Below, in pieces: positions 1,833 to 37,451 of a DNA stretch of 37,495 nt (the first letter of the stretch is position 1; every line of letters starts with the position of its first letter). The stretch comes from Candidatus Saccharimonadales bacterium (GTDB taxonomy: Bacteria > Patescibacteriota > WWE3 > UBA101185 > UBA10185): assembly GCA_035480775.1 (NCBI GenBank), contig DATIHK010000028.1, forward strand, positions 1 to 37,495, read 5' to 3'. The notes under the pieces were generated by a model. That model was not told the origin of the DNA, did no database searches, and was given only the letters and a program-made list of their open reading frames with translations. A program made the position numbers and the translations under genes.

Positions 1833-2575
1833 TGTTAAAAGTTAAAAATCTACACGTAAATATTGGTGATAAAGAAATTCTTAAAGGAGTAGATTTAGAA
1901 TTTGCTCCCAATAAAGTTTACGCTCTGATGGGGCAAAACGGTTCTGGAAAAAGTACTTTGGCACAAGCTTTAATGGGACACCCACAATATCTTGTAACAA
2001 GTGGAAGTGTTGTATTTGGCGGCAAAAATTTACTGGAACTAGATCCAACTTCTCGTGGTCGCGAAGGAATATTTTTGTCTTTTCAATATCCCAGTGAAAT
2101 TCCTGGAGTTACGATTTCGAGCTTTTTGCGAATGATTTACAACAAAAGCCACAACACAAATATGACCCCAGTAAATTTCCGCAAATTACTAAAAGAAAAA
2201 ATGGAAATGCTCGATATCAAAGAAGATTTTATGAACCGCTATTTAAACGATGGATTTTCTGGAGGCGAAAAAAAGCGAATGGAAATGTTACAGATGTTGG
2301 TTTTAGAACCAAAATTGGCGATTCTCGACGAGACCGATAGTGGACTAGATATAGATGCTCTAAATATTGTTGCCAAAGCGGTAAACAGTCTTAAAGACCA
2401 GACTAAAATGACAGTTTTAATAATTACTCACTACACACGAATTTTAGAACATATTGTTCCAGACGAAGTTTTGGTTATGCAAGATGGGCAAATTGTTAAG
2501 AAAGGCGGAAAAGAACTCGCGCATGAACTTGAAGCAAAAGGTTATGCTGAGTACGCTCCGGTGGTAAATGGGTAA
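1832..2575 (+). CDS. sufC: Fe-S cluster assembly ATPase SufC
   Basis: Walker [13 protein letters not shown] signature FSGGEKKR, and Walker [14 protein letters not shown] chose the internal ATG at 1832 (MLKVKNLHV...) over the track start at 1799. Confidence 0.93.
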
Positions 2576-4007
2576 AAAACTTAACGATATACATTCCGAC
2601 AAAAAAAAGTCGACGATAGAAGTTAACGCGAACTACGAAAACACTTACGGTTTTAATGTTAAATCTACGCCAGTTTTTAAAGCTCAAAAAGGATTAAACG
2701 AAGACATCGTAGCCCAAATTTCTGACATGAAACACGAACCAGTTTGGATGAAAGAATTTCGTCTGCGCGCCTATAAGACCTTTTTAGAAAAACCGATGCC
2801 AACTTGGGGTGGAGATTTAAGCAAAATCGACTTTAACAATATTTTTTATTATCTAAAACCATCTAACAAAGAAGAAAAAACTTGGGATGATGTTCCTAGC
2901 GAAATCAAAGAAACTTTTGACCGACTCGGAATTCCACAAGCCGAAAAAGAATATTTAGCCGGAGTAAAAGCTCAATTCGATAGCGAAGTCGTTTACGGAA
3001 CTTTACAAGCCGAGCTTCAAGAACAAGGAGTTATCTTTTTAGGAACTGACGACGCGCTCAAAAAGTATCCACACTTTTTCGAAGAATATTTTGGAAAAAT
3101 AATTCCTCCAACTGACAATAAATTTGCAGCGCTTAACAGTGCAGTTTGGTCGGGCGGATCTTTTGTTTATATTCCAAAAGGAGTTCATTTAAAGAGACCA
3201 CTGCAAGCTTATTTTAGAATTAATGCCGAAAACATGGGTCAGTTTGAACGCACTTTAATTATTGTTGATGAAGGGGCTTACGCCCATTATGTCGAAGGTT
3301 GCACAGCTCCGGTTTATTCTGCCGATTCTTTGCATTCAGCAGTGGTCGAAGTAATAGTTAAACCAGGAGCAAGATTTAGATATACAACAATTCAAAATTG
3401 GTCGAACGATGTTTATAATCTGGTAACTAAACGCGCCCGCGTCGAAAAAGACGGAATTATGGAATGGATCGATGGGAACTTAGGATCACGTTTAACTATG
3501 AAATATCCATCGTGCTTTTTGGTAGGCGAACGAGCTCATGGCGAAGTTTTATCTATTGCCTACGCCGGAAAAGGCCAACACCAAGATGCCGGAGCCAAAA
3601 TGATTCATATCGCGCCTAATACAACTTCCACAATTATTTCTAAATCGGTTAGTGTGCATGGTGGACGCACAAGTTATCGTGGAAAAGTTCAAGTCATTCC
3701 AGCAGCCAAAAATGCCAAGTCACGTGTTGAATGTGACGCTTTAATTTTAGATGAGGATTCACGATCTGATACTTATCCAACCATGGTAATTAATGAGCCA
3801 GGTGCCAATATCGAACACGAAGCCACAGTCAGTAAAATAGGCGAAGAAAAATTATTTTATTTGATGTCGCGCGGACTTACCGAAGCTGAGGCGATGAGTT
3901 TAATTGTTTCGGGATTTATCGAGCCAATCGTCAAAGAACTTCCGCTAGAATATTCTTTAGAATTGAATCGCCTTATAGAGTTGGAAATGGAAGGCTCTGT
4001 CGGATGA
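2568..4007 (+). CDS. sufB: Fe-S cluster assembly scaffold SufB
   Basis: 479 aa with SufB hallmarks ([23 protein letters not shown]; C-terminal [13 protein letters not shown]). It overlaps sufC by 8 nt and sufD by ATGA. Confidence 0.95.
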
Positions 4008-7569: not shown

Positions 7570-7646
7570 GGGTGTTTAGCTCAGCTGGTTAGAGCAGACG
7601 TCTTATACACGTCCGGTCCCTGGTTCGAATCCAGGAACACCCACCA
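7570..7646 (+). tRNA. tRNA-Ile with anticodon UAU
   Basis: Hand-folded cloverleaf. Acceptor GGGTGTT/AACACCC, D stem GCTC/GAGC, anticodon stem GACGT/ACGTC with loop CTTATAC (anticodon TAT). T arm CCTGG-TTCGAAT-CCAGG, discriminator A and an encoded CCA. Confidence 0.9.
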
Positions 7647-9673: not shown

Positions 9674-9747
9674 AGCGGGGTGGAGGAATAGTACCTCGTC
9701 AGGCTCATAATCTGAAGGTCCCGGTGCAAATCCGGGCCCCGCAACCA
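9674..9747 (+). tRNA. Initiator-type tRNA-fMet (anticodon CAU)
   Basis: The acceptor and anticodon arms closely resemble the canonical bacterial initiator as I recall it: AGCGGGGTGGAG..CTCGTCAGGCTCATAATCTGAAGGTC..CCGGGCCCCGCAACCA. It has a 1x72 mismatch (A/A) and A11:U24. The D loop (AATAGTA, no GG) and T loop (TGCAAAT) are atypical. Confidence 0.8.
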
Positions 9748-9859: not shown

Positions 9860-9935
9860 GCCAATATAGCTCAGGGGCTAGAGCGGGCGTTTCATAAGCG
9901 CTAGGTCGATGGTTCGAGTCCATCTATTGGCACCA
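9860..9935 (+). tRNA. Elongator-type tRNA with anticodon CAU (tRNA-Met, or tRNA-Ile2 if lysidinylated)
   Basis: Acceptor GCCAATA/TATTGGC, D stem GCTC/GAGC with a GG-containing D loop. Anticodon stem GGCGT/GCGCT with loop TTCATAA. T arm GATGG-TTCGAGT-CCATC and an encoded CCA. Confidence 0.85.
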
Positions 9936-10008: not shown

Positions 10009-10353
10009 ATGGCTAAAATCTTTTTGAAAGTCGTTGATAGGCATCGCTCATATTTGAAAAGTCAGATCGAACAATCCGGTCACAAGGTCGTCGACAGCAT
10101 TGATGTCGCTGATGTTTGCTTTGTGACTTTCGAGACAAACAAACTAGCTGTTCGTGCAATTCCAGTGAATCTGCGTTTCAAATTTATCGTAGAGGGCCTC
10201 ACCCACAGCGAGCGCCTTACGCGCAAGCTTCTCGATGATGCCGGTTTGTGGGGATTTCTGGATGTTTGGGATATTTTTCCACCACTCAACCCAGCATCAT
10301 TCAATTTTTCAGAACGACTCGATATCGCTCTACACCGTCTACAGCCAATGTAA
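10009..10353 (+). CDS. Hypothetical protein (cassette A ORFan)
   Basis: 114-aa ORF with GGAGG at 9999-10003, 5 nt before the ATG. Higher G+C than its flanks (28/60 in 10081-10140). I recognised no family motif. Confidence 0.6.
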   Translation: MAKIFLKVVDRHRSYLKSQIEQSGHKVVDSIDVADVCFVTFETNKLAVRAIPVNLRFKFIVEGLTHSERLTRKLLDDAGLWGFLDVWDIFPPLNPASFNFSERLDIALHRLQPM

Positions 10354-15037: not shown

Positions 15038-15319
15038 ATGATACGTATCAAACGTGTTAGGCAGTGGGAAGATGTTTTACCGGGATTTAATAACGCCGCA
15101 ATTGTTGTGCTCGTACGAAGAGGCGGTTGTCATATTTTTGTAGACACCATGAAAGTATCTGGTCAACAACGATATCAAATTGAACAGGCCTTTGGTGGAA
15201 AAGACTGCAGCACTTTTCGTAGTATAGATGAGATAAGTGTACTGGTCGATTATCATCTACCAAGAGTTTCATCGAAGTATGCTCGCACTCAGTTGGAAAA
15301 ACTATTTCCGCAGGCGTAA
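15038..15319 (+). CDS. Hypothetical protein (cassette B, ORF 1)
   Basis: 93 aa, with AAGGAG at 15027-15032. An extended -10-like ttgTAGAAT lies upstream. No recognisable family. Confidence 0.55.
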   Translation: MIRIKRVRQWEDVLPGFNNAAIVVLVRRGGCHIFVDTMKVSGQQRYQIEQAFGGKDCSTFRSIDEISVLVDYHLPRVSSKYARTQLEKLFPQA

Positions 15320-15349: not shown

Positions 15350-15718
15350 ATGGACGACACACCGCAGCCCAACATCACGATCAAAGGTTGGAATGGGCCA
15401 GTTTATCCGACTGATATTGAAGAAGCCAATAACTTCTTAATGGGTTACACCGGCAAGGACTATGAGTTGGTTGGCATAGCTGCAGCTATTGGAGGCACTA
15501 TCGGGTATGGAGCTACATCAGAAGCCTCTGTCAAAGGTGCTTTTTCGTATCAGCTGACATTTTATGCCCACCCGGACAGCCGCATCATGATGGCGTTTCC
15601 GCCAAGGAGCAATGGAACGATTCCACGATCAATCGCGTTTTACTACGGAAGAGGCGTCGCGCTTTCACAAATTTCAGCGCTGCTCGAAGAATTTCTTAAG
15701 GTCATAAAGCGCCGCTGA
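15350..15718 (+). CDS. Hypothetical protein (cassette B, ORF 2)
   Basis: 122 aa, with AAGGAG at 15339-15344. G+C is 29/60 in 15361-15420. No recognisable family. Confidence 0.55.
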   Translation: MDDTPQPNITIKGWNGPVYPTDIEEANNFLMGYTGKDYELVGIAAAIGGTIGYGATSEASVKGAFSYQLTFYAHPDSRIMMAFPPRSNGTIPRSIAFYYGRGVALSQISALLEEFLKVIKRR

Positions 15719-21424: not shown

Positions 21425-21733
21425 ATGGATACTAATGCCAATAGTTTGGCAGTAGTGGTTCGCTATTATCAAATCTATCTTCAATGTGTCGAAGGATCAC
21501 ATAAAGGTAGTTATGCCTTGTTCGACCGCGCGGGTTCTGGCAGCACCCGATTTGTAAAAGATCGAAAAAAGGCATCAAGATTATCGTGGCGACACCACCC
21601 GAATGTGACAGATAAAAGAGTCGCTCGAAAAGCACTTAGAGCTTTGGCATTTGCTTTCAAAGCTGGTAATATCGTGCATTTTGGCGACCTAAACCGTTAC
21701 GATAAGCCTGGATTAAAGGCAAAAGGAGGCTGA
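21425..21733 (+). CDS. Hypothetical protein (cassette C, paralog 1)
   Basis: 102 aa. Shares IYLQCVEGSHKGSYALF ... HFGDLN with the next ORF (VFLQVMEGSLRGYFLTL ... NWGTLN). TTGGGA-16-TATAAT lies upstream at 21367-21394. Confidence 0.6.
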   Translation: MDTNANSLAVVVRYYQIYLQCVEGSHKGSYALFDRAGSGSTRFVKDRKKASRLSWRHHPNVTDKRVARKALRALAFAFKAGNIVHFGDLNRYDKPGLKAKGG

Positions 21734-21734
21734 C

Positions 21735-22040
21735 ATGTCCGGAGGAAGCAATGGTCTGCACGAACTCAAGTTGCAAGTAATGAATCGTGGGGTCACCGTG
21801 TTTTTGCAAGTAATGGAAGGAAGTCTTAGAGGTTATTTCTTAACATTGTACGGCGACCGTGGCAGCTTTATTTCATCGTTTGTTGGTGCCACCCAGTGGA
21901 CATTAACGAAAGACAATGCACAAGAGCTCGTGATCAAGATTTTGAAAGAAGTAGAAAGCAGTTTTCCTGGATCAGTAGTTTCAAATTGGGGCACTTTGAA
22001 TTCTGCACACACAGAGTTGGAAAAAGTCACTAAACAATGA
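21735..22040 (+). CDS. Hypothetical protein (cassette C, paralog 2)
   Basis: 101 aa, with AAGGAGG at 21723-21729. Paralogous to 21425..21733 by eye alignment. Confidence 0.6.
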   Translation: MSGGSNGLHELKLQVMNRGVTVFLQVMEGSLRGYFLTLYGDRGSFISSFVGATQWTLTKDNAQELVIKILKEVESSFPGSVVSNWGTLNSAHTELEKVTKQ

Positions 22041-22334: not shown

Positions 22335-23373
22335 ATACTAACTTAAATTCACCAGGGACGTCGGTGCTTAAATCACCGGTTGCAAATCTTCCACCGATTT
22401 TATTCATTTCTAAAATGGCTAGTTCAATAGCTTTTTGACCTAGTCCATATTTTTCTAACAGCTCATCATAGCTACCAGATTCACCAAAAGTATCTTTTGC
22501 TCCCATTCTTCTAAGTGGAACAGGCATTTTTTCGGTCAGTAATTCGGCAACAGCTCCACCTAGTCCACCAGAAATTTGATGCTCTTCAATGGTAATAACT
22601 TTGCGGGTTTTGCTGACTGATTTCAAAATTGTTTCGCTGTCTAAAGGTTTTATAGTGGAGCAGTTTATAACGTCGCATCTAATTCCTCGGGCGTCTAGTC
22701 TATTAGCAACTTGCAGTGCACTTCTTAGTAACGGGCCGCAACAAATTACTGTAACGTGTTCGCCCTCCATCAAAACTTGTGCTTTACCAATTTCAAATGG
22801 AGTGTGAGAAGTTGTTATATGTGGAGTTGCTTCGCGCGTTAATCGTAAATAAACTGGTCCGACATGATTTGCAGCAGCCAGCGTAGCCTTTTTAGCTTCT
22901 TCATAATCACAAGGAACAATTACTGTCATATTTGGAAGTACCCGCATTAAAGCAATATCTTCTAAAGCTTGATGTGTCGCTCCATCGGGTCCATCTGAAA
23001 ATCCACTATGAGATCCTACAATTTTTACATTTGCGTTGGTATAACAGATTGAAGTTCTAACTTGTAGCCAATTAAGTCCTGCATCAAAAACGCTGTACGA
23101 TGCCATAAACGGAATTTTACCGCTCAGCGCAAGTCCTGCTGCTATTCCGGTCATGTTTTGTTCTGCTACTCCCAGTTCGGCAAATCTATCTGGAAAGCGT
23201 TTTTCAAATAGGTGACTATGGGTGGATTCTGCGAGGTCGGCAGTTAAAACTACGATCTCGCTATTTTTTTCTCCGGCTAAAACCACGCCATCACCATAAC
23301 CAAAGCGTGTGGGAACTTTTTCCACATCGGTATCAAAAATGTTTGGACTTAATTTTAAATCTTGATTCAACAT
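22333..23373 (-). CDS. tkt: Transketolase, C-terminal (pyrimidine-binding plus C-terminal domain) subunit
   Basis: GVAEQNMTGIAAGLALSGKIPFMASYSVF, and a 346-aa length typical of split transketolase subunit B. Confidence 0.92.
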   Translation of the reverse strand: MLNQDLKLSPNIFDTDVEKVPTRFGYGDGVVLAGEKNSEIVVLTADLAESTHSHLFEKRFPDRFAELGVAEQNMTGIAAGLALSGKIPFMASYSVFDAGLNWLQVRTSICYTNANVKIVGSHSGFSDGPDGATHQALEDIALMRVLPNMTVIVPCDYEEAKKATLAAANHVGPVYLRLTREATPHITTSHTPFEIGKAQVLMEGEHVTVICCGPLLRSALQVANRLDARGIRCDVINCSTIKPLDSETILKSVSKTRKVITIEEHQISGGLGGAVAELLTEKMPVPLRRMGAKDTFGESGSYDELLEKYGLGQKAIELAILEMNKIGGRFATGDLSTDVPGEFKLV

Positions 23374-23918
23374 TATTGAGGCTTACACGGTTGCGCTTTT
23401 CTAATAACATCAAACGCAATTTTCCAGTCCGTTTTACTTATCGCTACCAAATCTACTGCAACATTTGGACCGGTTTCTAGTACACAATTTTCTCCCAAAT
23501 CAATTTGCTCAATTGAGACAATAAGACTCTTGTCTGTTTTATCCGAGTAAACTTTTCTAACTTTAACTGTAGATTTTTTTACAGTTTGAGATTGAGTCGC
23601 GACCCCTAAAATATATTCTTTATTAAAGTCCACTTTATCATTTAGAGTGAGCTTACCAGTGCTGTCGACTGTGTTTAAGAAAGCAGCCAACTCTTGATCA
23701 TTATGAATTACTACTCTTTGTTTACTAATGCTAACAGTTGAATCAATATCAACTGGAAAGCCATTTAGTCTTCTCACTTCAGGTTCTTTGTTAAGGAGTT
23801 TAGAAATATTTATATCTCCTGACATTAATAAATATCCGGCACCGAGAATAAGCAAAACCAAAAGCACTACAGGCAATAGACTTATGTTAAAAAGATTAGT
23901 TGGCTTAGTCATATTCAC
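23373..23918 (-). CDS. Signal-anchored hypothetical protein interposed between the transketolase subunit genes
   Basis: N-terminal TM helix (ISLLPVVLLVLLILGAGYLL) plus a 140-aa soluble domain. It overlaps both tkt subunit genes (14 nt and 1 nt). Confidence 0.6.
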   Translation of the reverse strand: MNMTKPTNLFNISLLPVVLLVLLILGAGYLLMSGDINISKLLNKEPEVRRLNGFPVDIDSTVSISKQRVVIHNDQELAAFLNTVDSTGKLTLNDKVDFNKEYILGVATQSQTVKKSTVKVRKVYSDKTDKSLIVSIEQIDLGENCVLETGPNVAVDLVAISKTDWKIAFDVIRKAQPCKPQ

Positions 23919-24777
23919 TCCTTATTTGGCCTTCGAGCGTTCTGAGTTCTTTTAAGGCTTCTCTAGCCTGTTCTTTATCAGGAGGCTTTCCGTGCCATTC
24001 AAATTTATACTCCATAAATTTTACACTTTTTCCAGGGATCGTGTGAGCAATTATAACACTTGGTCGTTGTGACACTGCTTTGGACATATTACACGCGTTA
24101 ATTATCTCTTCGATATTGTGTCCGTCGATTTCGGTTACATACCAGTTAAATGCTTCTAGTTTTTCTCGTAATGGTTCTAAAGGCATTACGTCTTCTGTGT
24201 GTCCATCGATTTGAATATTATTTCTATCCATTATCCAAGTCAAATTGTTTAACTTGCGATTTCCGGCATACATTGCTGCTTCCCATGTTTGGCCTTCATC
24301 AAGCTCGCCGTCGCTCGTCATACAGTAAATTCTGTATGTGGAATTGTTCATTTGCGCGGCTAAAGCCATTCCAATTGCTTGTGAAAGACCTTGTCCTAGA
24401 GGTCCAGAAGTATTTTCGATTCCTGGAAGAGATCCATAATGAGGATGTCCTTGTAAACGACTATCTATTTTGCGCAAAGTCTTTAACTCGGATTTTTCAA
24501 AAAATCCAGCTTCAGCCAATGTCGCATACCAAATGGGGCAGATATGTCCGTTTGATAAAACAAATCGGTCTCGATCTGGATCGTTAGGATTTTTAGGATC
24601 GACGTGTAAAACGTTAAAATAAAGTGCTGCAAAAATATCTGCAGTTCCTAATGACCCAGCGCTATGACCAGATTTTGCTTGTAAAAGCATTTCTATTACG
24701 CTTTCTCTTAGCTTAACTGCTATTTCTTCAAGTTGCGGAATATTTGCATTGTGATGCTGCATTAAAGTTGTGGGCAT
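23905..24777 (-). CDS. tkt: Transketolase, N-terminal (TPP-binding) subunit
   Basis: SGHSAGSLGTADIFAALYF, SNGH, GPLGQGLSQAIGMA and DGELDEGQTWEA motifs. TATACT (RC of 24785-24790) lies 7 nt upstream of the ATG. Confidence 0.92.
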   Translation of the reverse strand: MPTTLMQHHNANIPQLEEIAVKLRESVIEMLLQAKSGHSAGSLGTADIFAALYFNVLHVDPKNPNDPDRDRFVLSNGHICPIWYATLAEAGFFEKSELKTLRKIDSRLQGHPHYGSLPGIENTSGPLGQGLSQAIGMALAAQMNNSTYRIYCMTSDGELDEGQTWEAAMYAGNRKLNNLTWIMDRNNIQIDGHTEDVMPLEPLREKLEAFNWYVTEIDGHNIEEIINACNMSKAVSQRPSVIIAHTIPGKSVKFMEYKFEWHGKPPDKEQAREALKELRTLEGQIRSEYD

Positions 24778-24806
24778 TGGTGAAAGTATAGATTTTACAC
24801 TTCAAA

Positions 24807-24835
24807 TTGACAAGCGGTTGTAGAAACCGTAAAAT
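24807..24835 (+). promoter_or_regulatory. Near-consensus sigma70 promoter TTGACA-17-TAAAAT driving the GC-rich unit
   Basis: TTGACA at 24807-24812, a 17-nt spacer, and TAAAT-type hexamer TAAAAT at 24830-24835. It is divergent from the tkt promoter. Confidence 0.5.
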
Positions 24836-25037
24836 TCCGGTATCAAATAACGAAAGGAGAGGCTATGCATAATGGTTAGTCGGATCACGGAGGCAATTGG
24901 TTAGAATAGGCGCTGCCGCGATTTCCAGCCGCTAGCCGCAACTATGCCAAGCACTGGTTACCGCGCCATCCCGACATAGTGATGCAGCCGGCATCACTGC
25001 CTTATTGGACGTGACCATGTTTTCCTGAGGAGGCCCG

Positions 25038-25184
25038 ATGCTCGAAATGCTCGTCGCAATGGCGCAAGCACTCGAAAGCACCGTGGTGCTGCAGCAAGAA
25101 ACCCAGAAGGCTATCCAGCCGTCTGAATCCGTTCGCGGATGGATGGTTTCATCGCTCAGCAACATGGATCGCCAGATACCCTGA
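25038..25184 (+). CDS. SD-led 48-aa micro-ORF in the GC-rich unit (coding status unproven)
   Basis: GAGGAGG at 25027-25033 lies 4 nt before the ATG. Translation: MLEMLVAMAQALESTVVLQQETQKAIQPSESVRGWMVSSLSNMDRQIP. It is below the ORF-track size cutoff. Confidence 0.35.
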   Translation: MLEMLVAMAQALESTVVLQQETQKAIQPSESVRGWMVSSLSNMDRQIP

Positions 25185-25298
25185 AGGGTTCCACCGCCTT
25201 TCAGTCCAAAACCGCTATGCATGTGTAGTGGATCTCACCTGAGCTTAGTTGAGATAGCGTAGCTAGGGAAGCAAAGCGAACATCTACAAGGAGGCACC

Positions 25299-25406
25299 AT
25301 GAAGACCGTCCAGACCCATGGAAAGTGGAATAACATCAATATCACCGCCAACACCTCCACCGGCGCCGGCCAGAGCCTGCGCACCGCGAACGTCAACATC
25401 GACTAG
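25299..25406 (+). CDS. SD-led 35-aa micro-ORF in the GC-rich unit (coding status unproven)
   Basis: AAGGAGG at 25288-25294 lies 4 nt before the ATG. Translation: MKTVQTHGKWNNINITANTSTGAGQSLRTANVNID. It is Asn/Thr-rich, with no Cys and no hydrophobic segment. Confidence 0.4.
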   Translation: MKTVQTHGKWNNINITANTSTGAGQSLRTANVNID

Positions 25407-25556
25407 ATCCGCGGCGCGGCCTGAGCAACACGTGTAATACCCGGCGGCAGTCTCGGCCATCTTCGGCCCCTGTTTTATGGATCTTGGCCATCGGCCTAGA
25501 TGCCGCCGGCTTTGTACTTTGGTTTGATTGCCTTTGATGAAGTAGAATCTGATTTT

Positions 25557-25643
25557 GGCGCCGCAAGTTCCGACGAGACCACTCATCTCGCACGAGCTTC
25601 CGGCGCCCTTTTTTTACCACCTAAAGGTGGCAAGTTTTTTTTT
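25557..25643 (+). terminator. Tandem intrinsic terminators ending the GC-rich unit
   Basis: A long imperfect hairpin ggcgccg...cggcgcc (25557-25607) followed by TTTTTTT (25609-25615). Then ccacc-taaa-ggtgg (25617-25630), followed after 4 nt by T9 (25635-25643). Confidence 0.6.
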
Positions 25644-25657
25644 GAAAACTTTAAGTG

Positions 25658-26206
25658 TTAATTTAAACTTTTAATATAGTCCAAGACTTCTTGAGGTGTA
25701 GTACAAATTTTTAAAAGATTGTCTTCTTGTTGAGTAAGTTCCATATTTTTGTGAACAAATTCCACAAATCCGTGCCAAAAATCACCAAATAAAACTATCG
25801 GTTTATAATCTGGATCGTGAATCCAAGAACTAATCCACGTCATTCCAAATTCACTAATTGTTCCTAAACTTCCGTTAAAAACTACATGAACATCCGAATT
25901 TTGCAACATTACTTTGGTGCGGTCAAAGTAATCTAAAGTTATAACTTCTTCATCAAAATCATTTGTTAAATCAACTCCTTCATAGTGGCGCTTTGGTTTA
26001 TTAGGGTGATAAGTTATTGCTAAAACTTTACCCCCGCCTTCGTGCGCACCAAGTGTAGAGGCTTTCATTACTCCAGGTCCACCACCATTAACTATTTCAT
26101 AACCACCTTGTGCCAGCAGTTTCGCAGTGAGAAAGGCGTCTTTATAAACTTGATTTTCGGGTTTCCAGGCTGCTCCACCTAGAAATGCCACTTTTTTAAT
26201 TTGCAT
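25658..26206 (-). CDS. LOG-family (TIGR00730) nucleotide phosphoribohydrolase
   Basis: VNGGGPGVMKA, and the PGGxGTxxE-like NGSLGTISEF. 182 aa. Confidence 0.85.
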   Translation of the reverse strand: MQIKKVAFLGGAAWKPENQVYKDAFLTAKLLAQGGYEIVNGGGPGVMKASTLGAHEGGGKVLAITYHPNKPKRHYEGVDLTNDFDEEVITLDYFDRTKVMLQNSDVHVVFNGSLGTISEFGMTWISSWIHDPDYKPIVLFGDFWHGFVEFVHKNMELTQQEDNLLKICTTPQEVLDYIKSLN

Positions 26207-26840
26207 AAAAGTTTTCTTCTACTTTCTTATATTTTTGAACAGCTTCTGCTGGATCTGCAGAGGCAAAAATATGCGAACCAATTACAGCACCCTTTGCCCC
26301 AGCTTTCAATATTTTTAATAAATTTTTTTCATCTAACCCGCCGTCTACTTGTATATACATATGTGGATGAGTTTTGTGGAGTTCTTTTATTTTGTTTACA
26401 ACGTGCTCATCAAAAGGCCTTCCTTGTTTACCAGGAATAACCGAAACAAATTGTACATAATCAATTTGGTCAAGATAGGGTTTTAGTTCAGTCACTAGAG
26501 TTTCTTCTTTTAGCGATAATCCAACTTTGTAAGCTAGTTTTTTAGCTTTTTGAATAAACATGTCTATGTGATGAGAATTTAATTCTATCTGCGTGCAGAC
26601 TTTTATTACTTTTCGTACTCGCTTTTCTACGAATTTACATGGATCGTTGACCATAAAATGAATTTCAAAAGCACAACTCGTTTCAATATCATCTAGTCCA
26701 GAAATGTCCATGCAGGTTGTGGAATCAACAAACTTTCCATCTGCAACATCAATGTGGACGAGTGTAGCTACATTTTCGACTTGTAGTATTTTAGTTCGTA
26801 TTTCTTCAAAATCTGTTTCTAAAATTGCAGGAACTATCAT
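26196..26840 (-). CDS. rpe: Ribulose-phosphate 3-epimerase
   Basis: MIVPAILETDF, HIDVADGKFV, HFMV and VDGG, the TIM-barrel Rpe pattern. 214 aa, next to rpiB. Confidence 0.8.
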   Translation of the reverse strand: MIVPAILETDFEEIRTKILQVENVATLVHIDVADGKFVDSTTCMDISGLDDIETSCAFEIHFMVNDPCKFVEKRVRKVIKVCTQIELNSHHIDMFIQKAKKLAYKVGLSLKEETLVTELKPYLDQIDYVQFVSVIPGKQGRPFDEHVVNKIKELHKTHPHMYIQVDGGLDEKNLLKILKAGAKGAVIGSHIFASADPAEAVQKYKKVEENFYAN

Positions 26841-31521: not shown

Positions 31522-31824
31522 ATGTTAGTGTTCTCGGCAGGAATTATAATTGGCGGTTTATGTGGATTTTTTGCCGGAGTTGCAACTTTGCACGAGGTAT
31601 TAAAATCGAATGGTTGGATAATCGGCGCAATTAAAGATTTTCGAAGCTCTATATATCCTCGAGACAATTTAGCTGAATGGTTTAATGGGCTTCCGGTCTA
31701 TCGCCGACTGCTAATTCTTTATTATGCCCGCTGGCCTAATTCCATCATGGATGTGGATCACAAAATGTATCCCGAAGCAGATCCAGTTCTCAAAGCTTTA
31801 GCTGCATCATTGAAAATCGACTGA
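31522..31824 (+). CDS. Hypothetical small membrane-anchored protein (cassette E ORFan)
   Basis: 100 aa, with AAGGAG at 31510-31515 and an N-terminal TM helix (LVFSAGIIIGGLCGFFAGV). G+C is 28/60 in 31681-31740. Confidence 0.55.
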   Translation: MLVFSAGIIIGGLCGFFAGVATLHEVLKSNGWIIGAIKDFRSSIYPRDNLAEWFNGLPVYRRLLILYYARWPNSIMDVDHKMYPEADPVLKALAASLKID

Positions 31825-37115: not shown

Positions 37116-37451
37116 ATGGCAGACGTGCAATTACCAGCTGCTCGAGCAGCTTATCCTGCTTCATTACGAATCGGAATTTTTACTTCTGGTAAAAACGGTA
37201 TTAGCAACAAGCAGCTCGGAAGAGGCATTTTCACAGACACTGTAGATGGTGCACTTAGGTTTAAGGTAGACACTAGTGAAAACACAGAATTTAGAGTAGG
37301 TGAAACATTGACCGTTAGAAGTGTCTTACCTTTGCCGCATGTGAATCGCAGAAATAACGACAAAACGCTTGTATGTAAAGGTCGTGTAGAAAAAGTAACA
37401 CCTGGATTCAAAAAGACAGTAGTCATTTTAAGAATACGACCCATTGACTAA
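37116..37451 (+). CDS. Hypothetical protein (cassette F ORFan)
   Basis: 111 aa, predicted beta-rich, with GGAGG at 37103-37107. No family recognised. Confidence 0.55.
   Translation: MADVQLPAARAAYPASLRIGIFTSGKNGISNKQLGRGIFTDTVDGALRFKVDTSENTEFRVGETLTVRSVLPLPHVNRRNNDKTLVCKGRVEKVTPGFKKTVVILRIRPID

Follow-up and report, generated by a model that had tools for sequence, protein, structure and literature searches.

Between the LOG gene and tktN, which encodes the N-terminal half of a split transketolase, the genome of an uncultured bacterium of candidate division WWE3 (Patescibacteria or candidate phyla radiation, CPR) carries an element of about 840 nt that stands out in composition from the remainder of the 37,495-nt window, i.e. 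the whole stretch of DNA that was analysed. Gene order around it is conserved: ligase ... LGT-VKOR-rpiB-rpe-LOG are followed by tktN, an orphan gene and tktC, with the element between LOG and tktN, and the adjoining tktN is 72–75% identical to its counterparts in WWE3 metagenome-assembled genomes. The locus is also present in the assembly GCA_964473275.1. The G+C content rises at about 24861–24880 and falls again near 25620. At 24880–25610 it amounts to 0.56 (z = +6.4), the other 700-nt segments of the window having a mean of 0.374, a standard deviation of 0.029 and a maximum of 0.461; in 300-nt segments, the values covering 24901–25500 are 0.567 and 0.560 and all others lie between 0.28 and 0.48. 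Tetranucleotide usage agrees with this picture, the Kullback–Leibler divergence of the element (0.39) being the highest of the window (mean 0.149, standard deviation 0.031). A preliminary description of this DNA had already called the segment the strongest compositional outlier of the window, quoting hand counts of 33/60 G+C at 24901–24960, 35/60 at 25321–25380 and 23/60 in rpe (26221–26280); the counts proved exact and both measures bear the statement out.

The element has the layout of an autonomous plus-strand transcription unit, as had been proposed. Its promoter, TTGACA-17-TAAAAT, was found again at the 5′ end and the tandem terminators at the 3′ end, the latter by a terminator scan, as an inverted repeat (I1) and in the predicted fold; no minus-strand promoter was found inside the body. 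The −35 hexamer of the unit (24807–24812) overlaps that of tktN on the opposite strand (24808–24813). Three plus-strand open reading frames (ORFs) start behind Shine–Dalgarno sequences (SDs): a mini-ORF of four codons at 24865, ORF48 and ORF35 (Table 1). All three and their SDs had been pointed out earlier and were recovered, together with the absence of any plus-strand ORF of at least 60 aa (the longest has 53). Such starts are more frequent than expected by chance. GGAG-N4-10-ATG occurs three times in the element as against 0.38 expected from 5000 dinucleotide shuffles (P = 0.006), and GGAGG-N3-9-ATG twice as against 0.09 (P = 0.005); the three sites are all on the plus strand, the minus strand having none. 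Over the whole window GGAGG-N3-9-ATG is found 10 times (3.0 expected), two of these occurrences falling within the element, which makes up 2.3% of the window. Coding-type periodicity of G+C content is clearest in ORF35, where the contrast at third codon positions (GC3) exceeds that of all 500 shuffles, the phase signal is limited to the ORF and C/(C+T) reaches 0.88 at third positions. The period-3 signal of ORF48 is moderate; its first codon positions (GC1) are richer in G+C than its second ones (GC2), and it therefore fits the plus strand rather than an antisense shadow. Among the readings that the preliminary description had left side by side, namely a micro-ORF operon, a structured RNA and foreign DNA, the first is the one that these signals support.

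Table 1. Features at the LOG–tktN junction and related loci (window coordinates unless another locus is named)
Feature	Position	Strand	Remarks
Orphan ORF, 181 aa, between the two transketolase halves	23373-23918	minus	relatives: same position, 169-195 aa
tktN, N-terminal half of split transketolase	23905-24777	minus	
Leaderless promoter of tktN, TTGTCA-17-TATACT	24785-24813	minus	10/12 consensus match; 7 nt before ATG at 24777
Sigma-70-type promoter of the unit, TTGACA-17-TAAAAT	24807-24835	plus	11/12 consensus match
AT-rich leader, SD AGGAGAGG, 4-codon mini-ORF MHNG	24855-24879	plus	
GC-rich body, compositional island	24880-25612		~0.56 G+C as against 37% in the genome
SD GAGGAGG and ORF48 (25038-25184), MLEMLVAMAQALESTVVLQQETQKAIQPSESVRGWMVSSLSNMDRQIP	25027-25184	plus	G+C by codon position 0.61/0.39/0.65
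58-aa antisense ORF, gene call of GCA_964473275.1	25284-25460	minus	judged a shadow ORF of GC-rich DNA
SD AAGGAGG and ORF35 (25299-25406), MKTVQTHGKWNNINITANTSTGAGQSLRTANVNID	25288-25406	plus	G+C by codon position 0.39/0.44/0.89
Long GC-rich hairpin of the 3′ untranslated region, then T-rich stretch	25441-25509	plus	predicted fold
Terminator 1, imperfect 22-nt arms, then T7	25557-25615	plus	stem 25557-25607: inverted repeat I1 and predicted fold
Terminator 2, CCACC-TAAA-GGTGG, then CAAG and T9	25617-25643	plus	hairpin 25617-25630 by terminator scan
LOG	25658-26206	minus	PF03641/PF18306
Cys-rich small protein, 51-55 aa	L084 2035-2199; L085 438-602; L086 2211-2350	minus	

The long minus-strand ORFs, which had been regarded as artefacts, keep that status: they have neither an SD nor a GC phase of their own, and those tested gave no match in Pfam or PHROGs. 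A 155-aa same-phase antisense frame was considered as a coding sequence and rejected, having no homologue, no SD and a GC1 below GC2. The 58-aa antisense ORF (25284–25460) likewise lacks an SD and a GC3 phase of its own. Public annotations conflict at this point, the record of the window giving the plus-strand 48-aa ORF, which is listed as a protein in NCBI nr, and GCA_964473275.1 giving the antisense 58-aa ORF; both are singleton clusters, and gene callers disagree on which strand of the element to annotate.

Most genes of the window are devoid of an SD, and in several a −10 box stands just 5′ of the ATG; housekeeping genes of the latter kind are probably leaderless. The GC3 of housekeeping genes is 0.22–0.30. 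GGAGG-type SDs are found at a minority of host genes, and three of the strong-SD genes, at 15350–15718, 10009–10353 and 21735–22040, are short, contain no Pfam domain and surpass the other host genes in GC3 (0.42–0.50). Genes of about 100 aa with strong GGAGG/AAGGAG sites and no credible Pfam match are also located at 21425–21733, 15038–15319, 31522–31824 and 37116–37451. There appear to be two classes of host genes, mostly SD-less housekeeping genes on the one hand and small orphans with strong SDs and raised GC3 on the other. The strong SDs of the element match the GGAGGC-type sites of the host, and the GC3 of ORF48 (0.65) and of ORF35 (0.89) is above that of every host gene.

An abrupt change in G+C content would also be produced by a chimeric join, in assembly or binning, with DNA of a GC-rich organism, and this change is the sole support for such an artefact. 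Both junctions, however, recur in an independent Logan assembly of SRR9179559, which shows 100% identity along 3991 nt that include the whole element, and in GCA_964473275.1, a distinguishable strain that differs by 28 single-nucleotide polymorphisms (SNPs) in 8549 nt (0.33%); moreover, the flanks are collinear with those of relatives on either side. With the element present in three assemblies and two strains, an assembly chimera is essentially excluded.

In the three closest relatives as judged by tktN (L078, L079 and L081, with 86, 83 and 79% identity, respectively), the gap between LOG and tktN measures only about 42 nt, and it is short in most of the 74 genome loci. The spacer was read in L078 and L079, where it is filled by a counterpart of the tktN promoter, TTGTCAA-N17/18-TATACT-N7-ATG. 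The element is thus an insertion of about 840 nt that separates the LOG stop codon from the −35 box of tktN: the gap of the closest relatives holds little more than this leaderless promoter, which is native, has been retained in the window and marks the left edge of the insertion. Other WWE3 loci are occupied at the same place. GC-rich units in the same orientation, with a consensus promoter and a terminator, were found in L080, L082, L016, L018, L010, L013 and L060, and an AAGGAGA-type SD with a first short ORF (5–29 codons) in all of these except L013 and L060. L005 has a GC-rich 167-aa membrane ORF at the junction, the small ORFs of L050 and L006 are of membrane or secreted type, and L084 and L086 have a PGA_cap gene together with a small-ORF unit. 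In twelve junction units taken together, 17 SD-led starts are in sense and two in antisense orientation. The LOG–tktN junction is a recurrent variable site in WWE3, where unrelated and often GC-rich cargo lies in one and the same orientation. The bodies of these units could not be aligned with one another or with the window, and MAFFT alignments were meaningless. Homology of the body in the window to that of L080, L082 or other units was considered and rejected, local alignment scores being equal to those of shuffles.

These data give substance to part of the earlier suggestion that the element is foreign DNA: its deviant composition and its absence from the three closest relatives argue for an insertion. 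The DNA of the element showed no similarity to phages or plasmids, and the search for a donor, which took in phages, plasmids and contigs from viral and JGI metagenome collections, was negative, public genomes not having been searched for the element itself. As no donor was identified, the word foreign reflects composition and phyletic pattern. The element might then be inert DNA of a higher-GC donor, recently captured by illegitimate recombination after uptake, with the SD-led ORFs as leftovers of donor genes. This would agree with the sharpness of the compositional jump, with the presence of unrelated cargo in each lineage and with a codon usage unlike that of host housekeeping genes. It would also agree with the failure to find mobility genes in the element or terminal inverted repeats, flanking direct repeats and a target-site duplication at it; a miniature inverted-repeat transposable element or insertion sequence was itself rejected for want of terminal repeats. 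Apart from the missing donor, however, a random fragment is unlikely to provide a complete unit with a promoter in host-like AT-rich DNA, three SDs on the same strand and two terminators, and the element is nearly unchanged in two strains that differ locally by 0.33%. In addition, 17 synonymous changes have left the GC-rich small gene of L084 and L086 with a GC3 of 0.61–0.65; GC-richness therefore need not mean recent arrival. All in all, we regard inert capture as rather unlikely. The 584 kb of loci from relatives contained no further copy of the element, the search not having extended to the remainder of the window.

The suggestion of a structured RNA fared less well. The two hairpins on which it drew do exist (24979–24997, with a 7-bp stem, and 25127–25140, with a 5-bp stem and a UUCG loop), but the latter sits within ORF48. 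The covariance models of Rfam 15 gave no match in 24700–25750 at E ≤ 10, the families without a match including RNase P, transfer-messenger RNA (tmRNA), signal recognition particle RNA, 6S RNA, riboswitches, OLE/GOLLD/ROOL/HEARO/raiA and introns; at gathering thresholds, the whole window yielded only three tRNAs located elsewhere, and ARAGORN found no tmRNA. This is in line with the preliminary description, in which no consensus of RNase P, tmRNA or signal recognition particle RNA had been recognised. When compared with shuffles, the whole transcript (24840–25645) folds with z = −2.9 on the plus and −3.85 on the minus strand, and the body without terminators with −1.3 and −2.3, respectively. 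Neither the 5′ leader (z = +0.68) nor the inter-ORF spacer (z = −0.34) shows any excess of structure, and the terminator-bearing 3′ region (25404–25648) reaches −2.27.

A non-coding RNA (ncRNA) of another kind may nevertheless be envisaged, namely a fast-evolving GC-rich molecule whose SDs, above all the 5′ one, recruit ribosomes for no other purpose than RNA stability or localisation, the peptides being irrelevant. The 5′ SD would in that case act in the manner of the STAB-SD type of 5′ stabiliser, and the leader with its SD and mini-ORF is the most recurrent feature among the junction units. In this AT-rich genome the G+C content of the element is like that of the tRNAs of the window (0.53–0.59), structural RNAs lying far above the 37% background. 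The bodies of the L080, L082 and L060 units fold somewhat better than shuffles (z −2.1 to −2.9), and L080 and L082 share two collinear GC-rich 11-mers, GCCGCGCAGCG and TCCACCGTTTC, found in no other of the 82 loci. Against this stand the lack of Rfam matches, both for the element and, at gathering thresholds or E ≤ 1, for the units of relatives; the folding of the element itself, in which, of the separate parts, only the terminator-bearing 3′ end reaches z = −2.27 and the minus strand does at least as well as the plus strand; the impossibility of aligning the bodies of different units; and the GC3 of 0.89 confined to ORF35, which is unexpected for an RNA helix. We consider such an RNA unlikely to be the explanation for the element in the window. 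For L080 3181–4000 and L082 2545–3000 (minus strand), where the G+C content is 0.59–0.63, the codon-phase GC flat and the SD-led ORFs tiny (MRPFY and MDPPFFSFFVHNLKNY, each followed by a stop codon), the units may form an unrecognised RNA family.

The reading that we favour, and whose chances we would call even, is that of a self-contained cassette for micro-proteins, peculiar to this species and inserted at a LOG–tktN hotspot of variable content. Several observations weigh against it. No homologue of either peptide was detected in any collection searched: HMMER searches of ORF48 and ORF35 against 1.84e9 protein representatives returned the sequences themselves and, besides, one 809-aa tandem-repeat protein, which was rejected as spurious, its score being the sum of 11 weak repeat matches; there was no match in Pfam, PHROGs, PADLOC or NCBIfam, no homologue among PDB sequences or in 584 kb of WWE3 loci, no match in plasmids by tblastn, and none in peptide-pattern scans of viral and JGI metagenome contigs. 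A concatenated six-frame query (1090 aa) gave no match either, but it is uninformative, its list of 8000 candidates having been saturated and lacking even the proteins of the window itself. ORFs of 48 and 35 codons are unremarkable at 56% G+C, the estimated probabilities of meeting no stop codon being about 0.16 and 0.26, and the codon usage of both is far from that of host housekeeping genes. AlphaFold2 single-sequence models speak in favour of the cassette, their confidence being high for such short orphans: they predict a helical hairpin for ORF48 (predicted local distance difference test, pLDDT, 87.7) and a beta-hairpin for ORF35 (pLDDT 82.7 for the best model, 61–70 for the others). High values count as weak evidence for short single sequences, and fold searches with these models gave no meaningful match to solved structures. 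The single SNP of the element between the two strains, 25011 G>A, lies in the leader, outside the ORFs. About 60% of the GC-rich body is non-coding, for which a micro-protein model has no account, and it likewise leaves unaccounted the units without convincing ORFs in several relatives. The units of L080, L082, L016, L013 and L060 have a flat GC phase and only very short ORFs, which also suits an ncRNA, and the class of junction units is therefore heterogeneous.

If the cassette reading is correct, the element would be a lineage-specific accessory unit that entered the pentose-phosphate operon in the gap separating the LOG stop codon from the −35 box of leaderless tktN, and its own consensus promoter would drive an mRNA of about 800 nt from around 24842, convergent with LOG. 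Ribosomes would load at the strong SD before the mini-ORF, which is possibly a ribosome-loading or 5′ stabiliser site and might protect the RNA, and two further GGAGG sites would direct the synthesis of two orphan micro-proteins, a 48-aa predicted helical hairpin and an Asn/Thr-rich 35-aa predicted beta-hairpin. A GC-rich hairpin in the 3′ untranslated region and two intrinsic terminators would end the transcript at 25615/25643, before LOG, while tktN would depend on the leaderless promoter of its own. We infer that the unit is transcribed and translated, that its 5′ end may act as a stabiliser and that it arose horizontally or by rapid turnover; as to its function in the cell, our guess is that it plays an accessory or competitive part, such as can be expected of small-protein loci that vary between strains.

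That units of this design can be real protein genes at the junction follows from the Cys-rich protein of L084, L085 and L086. Its gene, adjoining tktN and the PGA_cap gene, encodes 51–55 aa with the pattern MS(N)K(H)CTCT[RK]CPNCGHL.EDQQGCNVC...YDLNCP[IV]HG, including seven conserved Cys; the protein has the look of a zinc ribbon and has been assigned to no family. A codon-by-codon comparison of L084 with L086 gives 21 identical, 17 synonymous and 13 non-synonymous positions for this ORF, whose GC3 is 0.61–0.65 in hosts of 41% G+C. Judging from this codon pattern, the ORF is under purifying selection and demonstrably protein-coding. The L010 unit (2402–3482, minus strand) has two SD-led mini-ORFs, MAVVFTMCFDL at unit position 106 and MEAVVFMS at about 326, whose common core AVVF(T)M is spelled by different codons in each, which may point to duplication within the unit or to selection acting on a peptide of only a few residues.

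It is tempting to go one step further and to view the WWE3 LOG–tktN junction as a dedicated expression site, in which a consensus promoter and a strong SD/start module, placed beside the leaderless tktN promoter, repeatedly precede unrelated cargo of abnormally high G+C content. Such a site may serve for the capture or invention of small genes at a single place, or for fast-evolving GC-rich RNAs with a ribosome-binding 5′ stabiliser, and the element in the window would then be one allele of a system instead of a one-off insertion. The unit of the window and those of relatives have in common the consensus of promoter and SD only, including the TTGACAAG of the promoter shared with L080, L082 and L016, which may have come about by convergence. 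Since these may be plain consensus signals, we hold a dedicated site to be a minority possibility, distinctly improbable at present.

Some observations on the neighbouring genes may be recorded here. In L010, L016, L050, L011 and L083, rpe and LOG are apparently fused upstream of tktN in one ORF of about 380–410 aa; they are separate, overlapping genes in the window and its closest relatives. The 181-aa orphan ORF between the transketolase halves has no match in Pfam, PADLOC or NCBIfam. Of the 28 SNPs by which GCA_964473275.1 differs from the window, 20 fall in this ORF, at 23544–23880, and 18 of the 20 are at third codon positions; the ORF is therefore a real gene under purifying selection, and it carries a locally divergent tract (~6%) that has probably recombined. 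The three tRNAs of the window (7570–7646, 9674–9747 and 9860–9935) are a tRNA-Ile with a UAU anticodon (encoded tat) and two CAU-anticodon tRNAs called Met.

Small proteins and lineage-variable accessory loci are almost unexplored in the CPR/Patescibacteria, and the episymbiotic lifestyle of these bacteria probably depends on both. If the peptides are made, they would be new micro-proteins without relatives, and if the hotspot reading holds, rpe-LOG–tktN would be a defined and easily surveyed locus for the gain, loss and invention of small genes in ultra-small genomes. As an orphan of a single species, the element on its own carries modest weight.

Literature searches returned no description of such a locus, but several known systems invite comparison. 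Like the genes of bacterial small proteins, ORF48 and ORF35 have fewer than 50 codons, a canonical SD and an ATG start, are intergenic, missed or inconsistently annotated, and belong to no family. They differ from these genes in lacking conservation, in being strongly GC-rich relative to the host, and in sharing with a mini-ORF one predicted 800-nt transcript with long GC-rich untranslated parts. Many known small proteins are hydrophobic membrane proteins, whereas ORF48 and ORF35 are both polar or amphipathic. The latter point also separates the element from type I toxin–antitoxin systems, which it otherwise resembles in having small ORFs on a GC-rich, possibly structured mRNA, in an intergenic, poorly conserved and strain-variable location: neither peptide has a transmembrane-like segment, no antisense promoter or RNA is evident, and the only hydrophobic ORF of the element is a 54-aa antisense frame without an SD. 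A leader peptide or attenuator of the Thr type was considered for ORF35, which is rich in Asn, Thr and Ile and followed by hairpins, and was rejected because there are no downstream genes on the plus strand, the next gene, LOG, being convergent. Long GC-rich intergenic regions in AT-rich genomes are a signal that pipelines for ncRNA discovery can be expected to flag, and the element is such a region. It differs from structured ncRNAs of the kind sought by the pipeline of PMC11109978 in its lack of Rfam matches, of a significant folding excess and of homologues for covariation, and in its translation signals and coding periodicity.

Phage morons are autonomous promoter–gene–terminator units of deviant composition inserted between genes. 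The element is comparable in having its own promoter and terminators and a deviant G+C content, and in being present or absent among close relatives within a conserved gene order; it differs in that there is no prophage, family scans having found no phage genes in the 37-kb window, and no PHROG match. The Cys-rich unit of L084, L085 and L086 comes closest in design, with the same position and orientation, a consensus promoter, an AAGGAGA-type SD, a GC-rich small ORF and a terminator; unlike the element, it has a single ORF, which resembles neither ORF48 nor ORF35 in sequence; two lineages have conserved the unit, and a PGA_cap gene lies beside it. Deviant in composition and missing at a conserved junction in the closest relatives, the element has the features of a moron-like islet, and it is a family-less addition to such islets and to the accessory genes made of small ORFs. 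The more interesting lead is the recurrence, at one junction of WWE3 genomes, of cargo in the same orientation.

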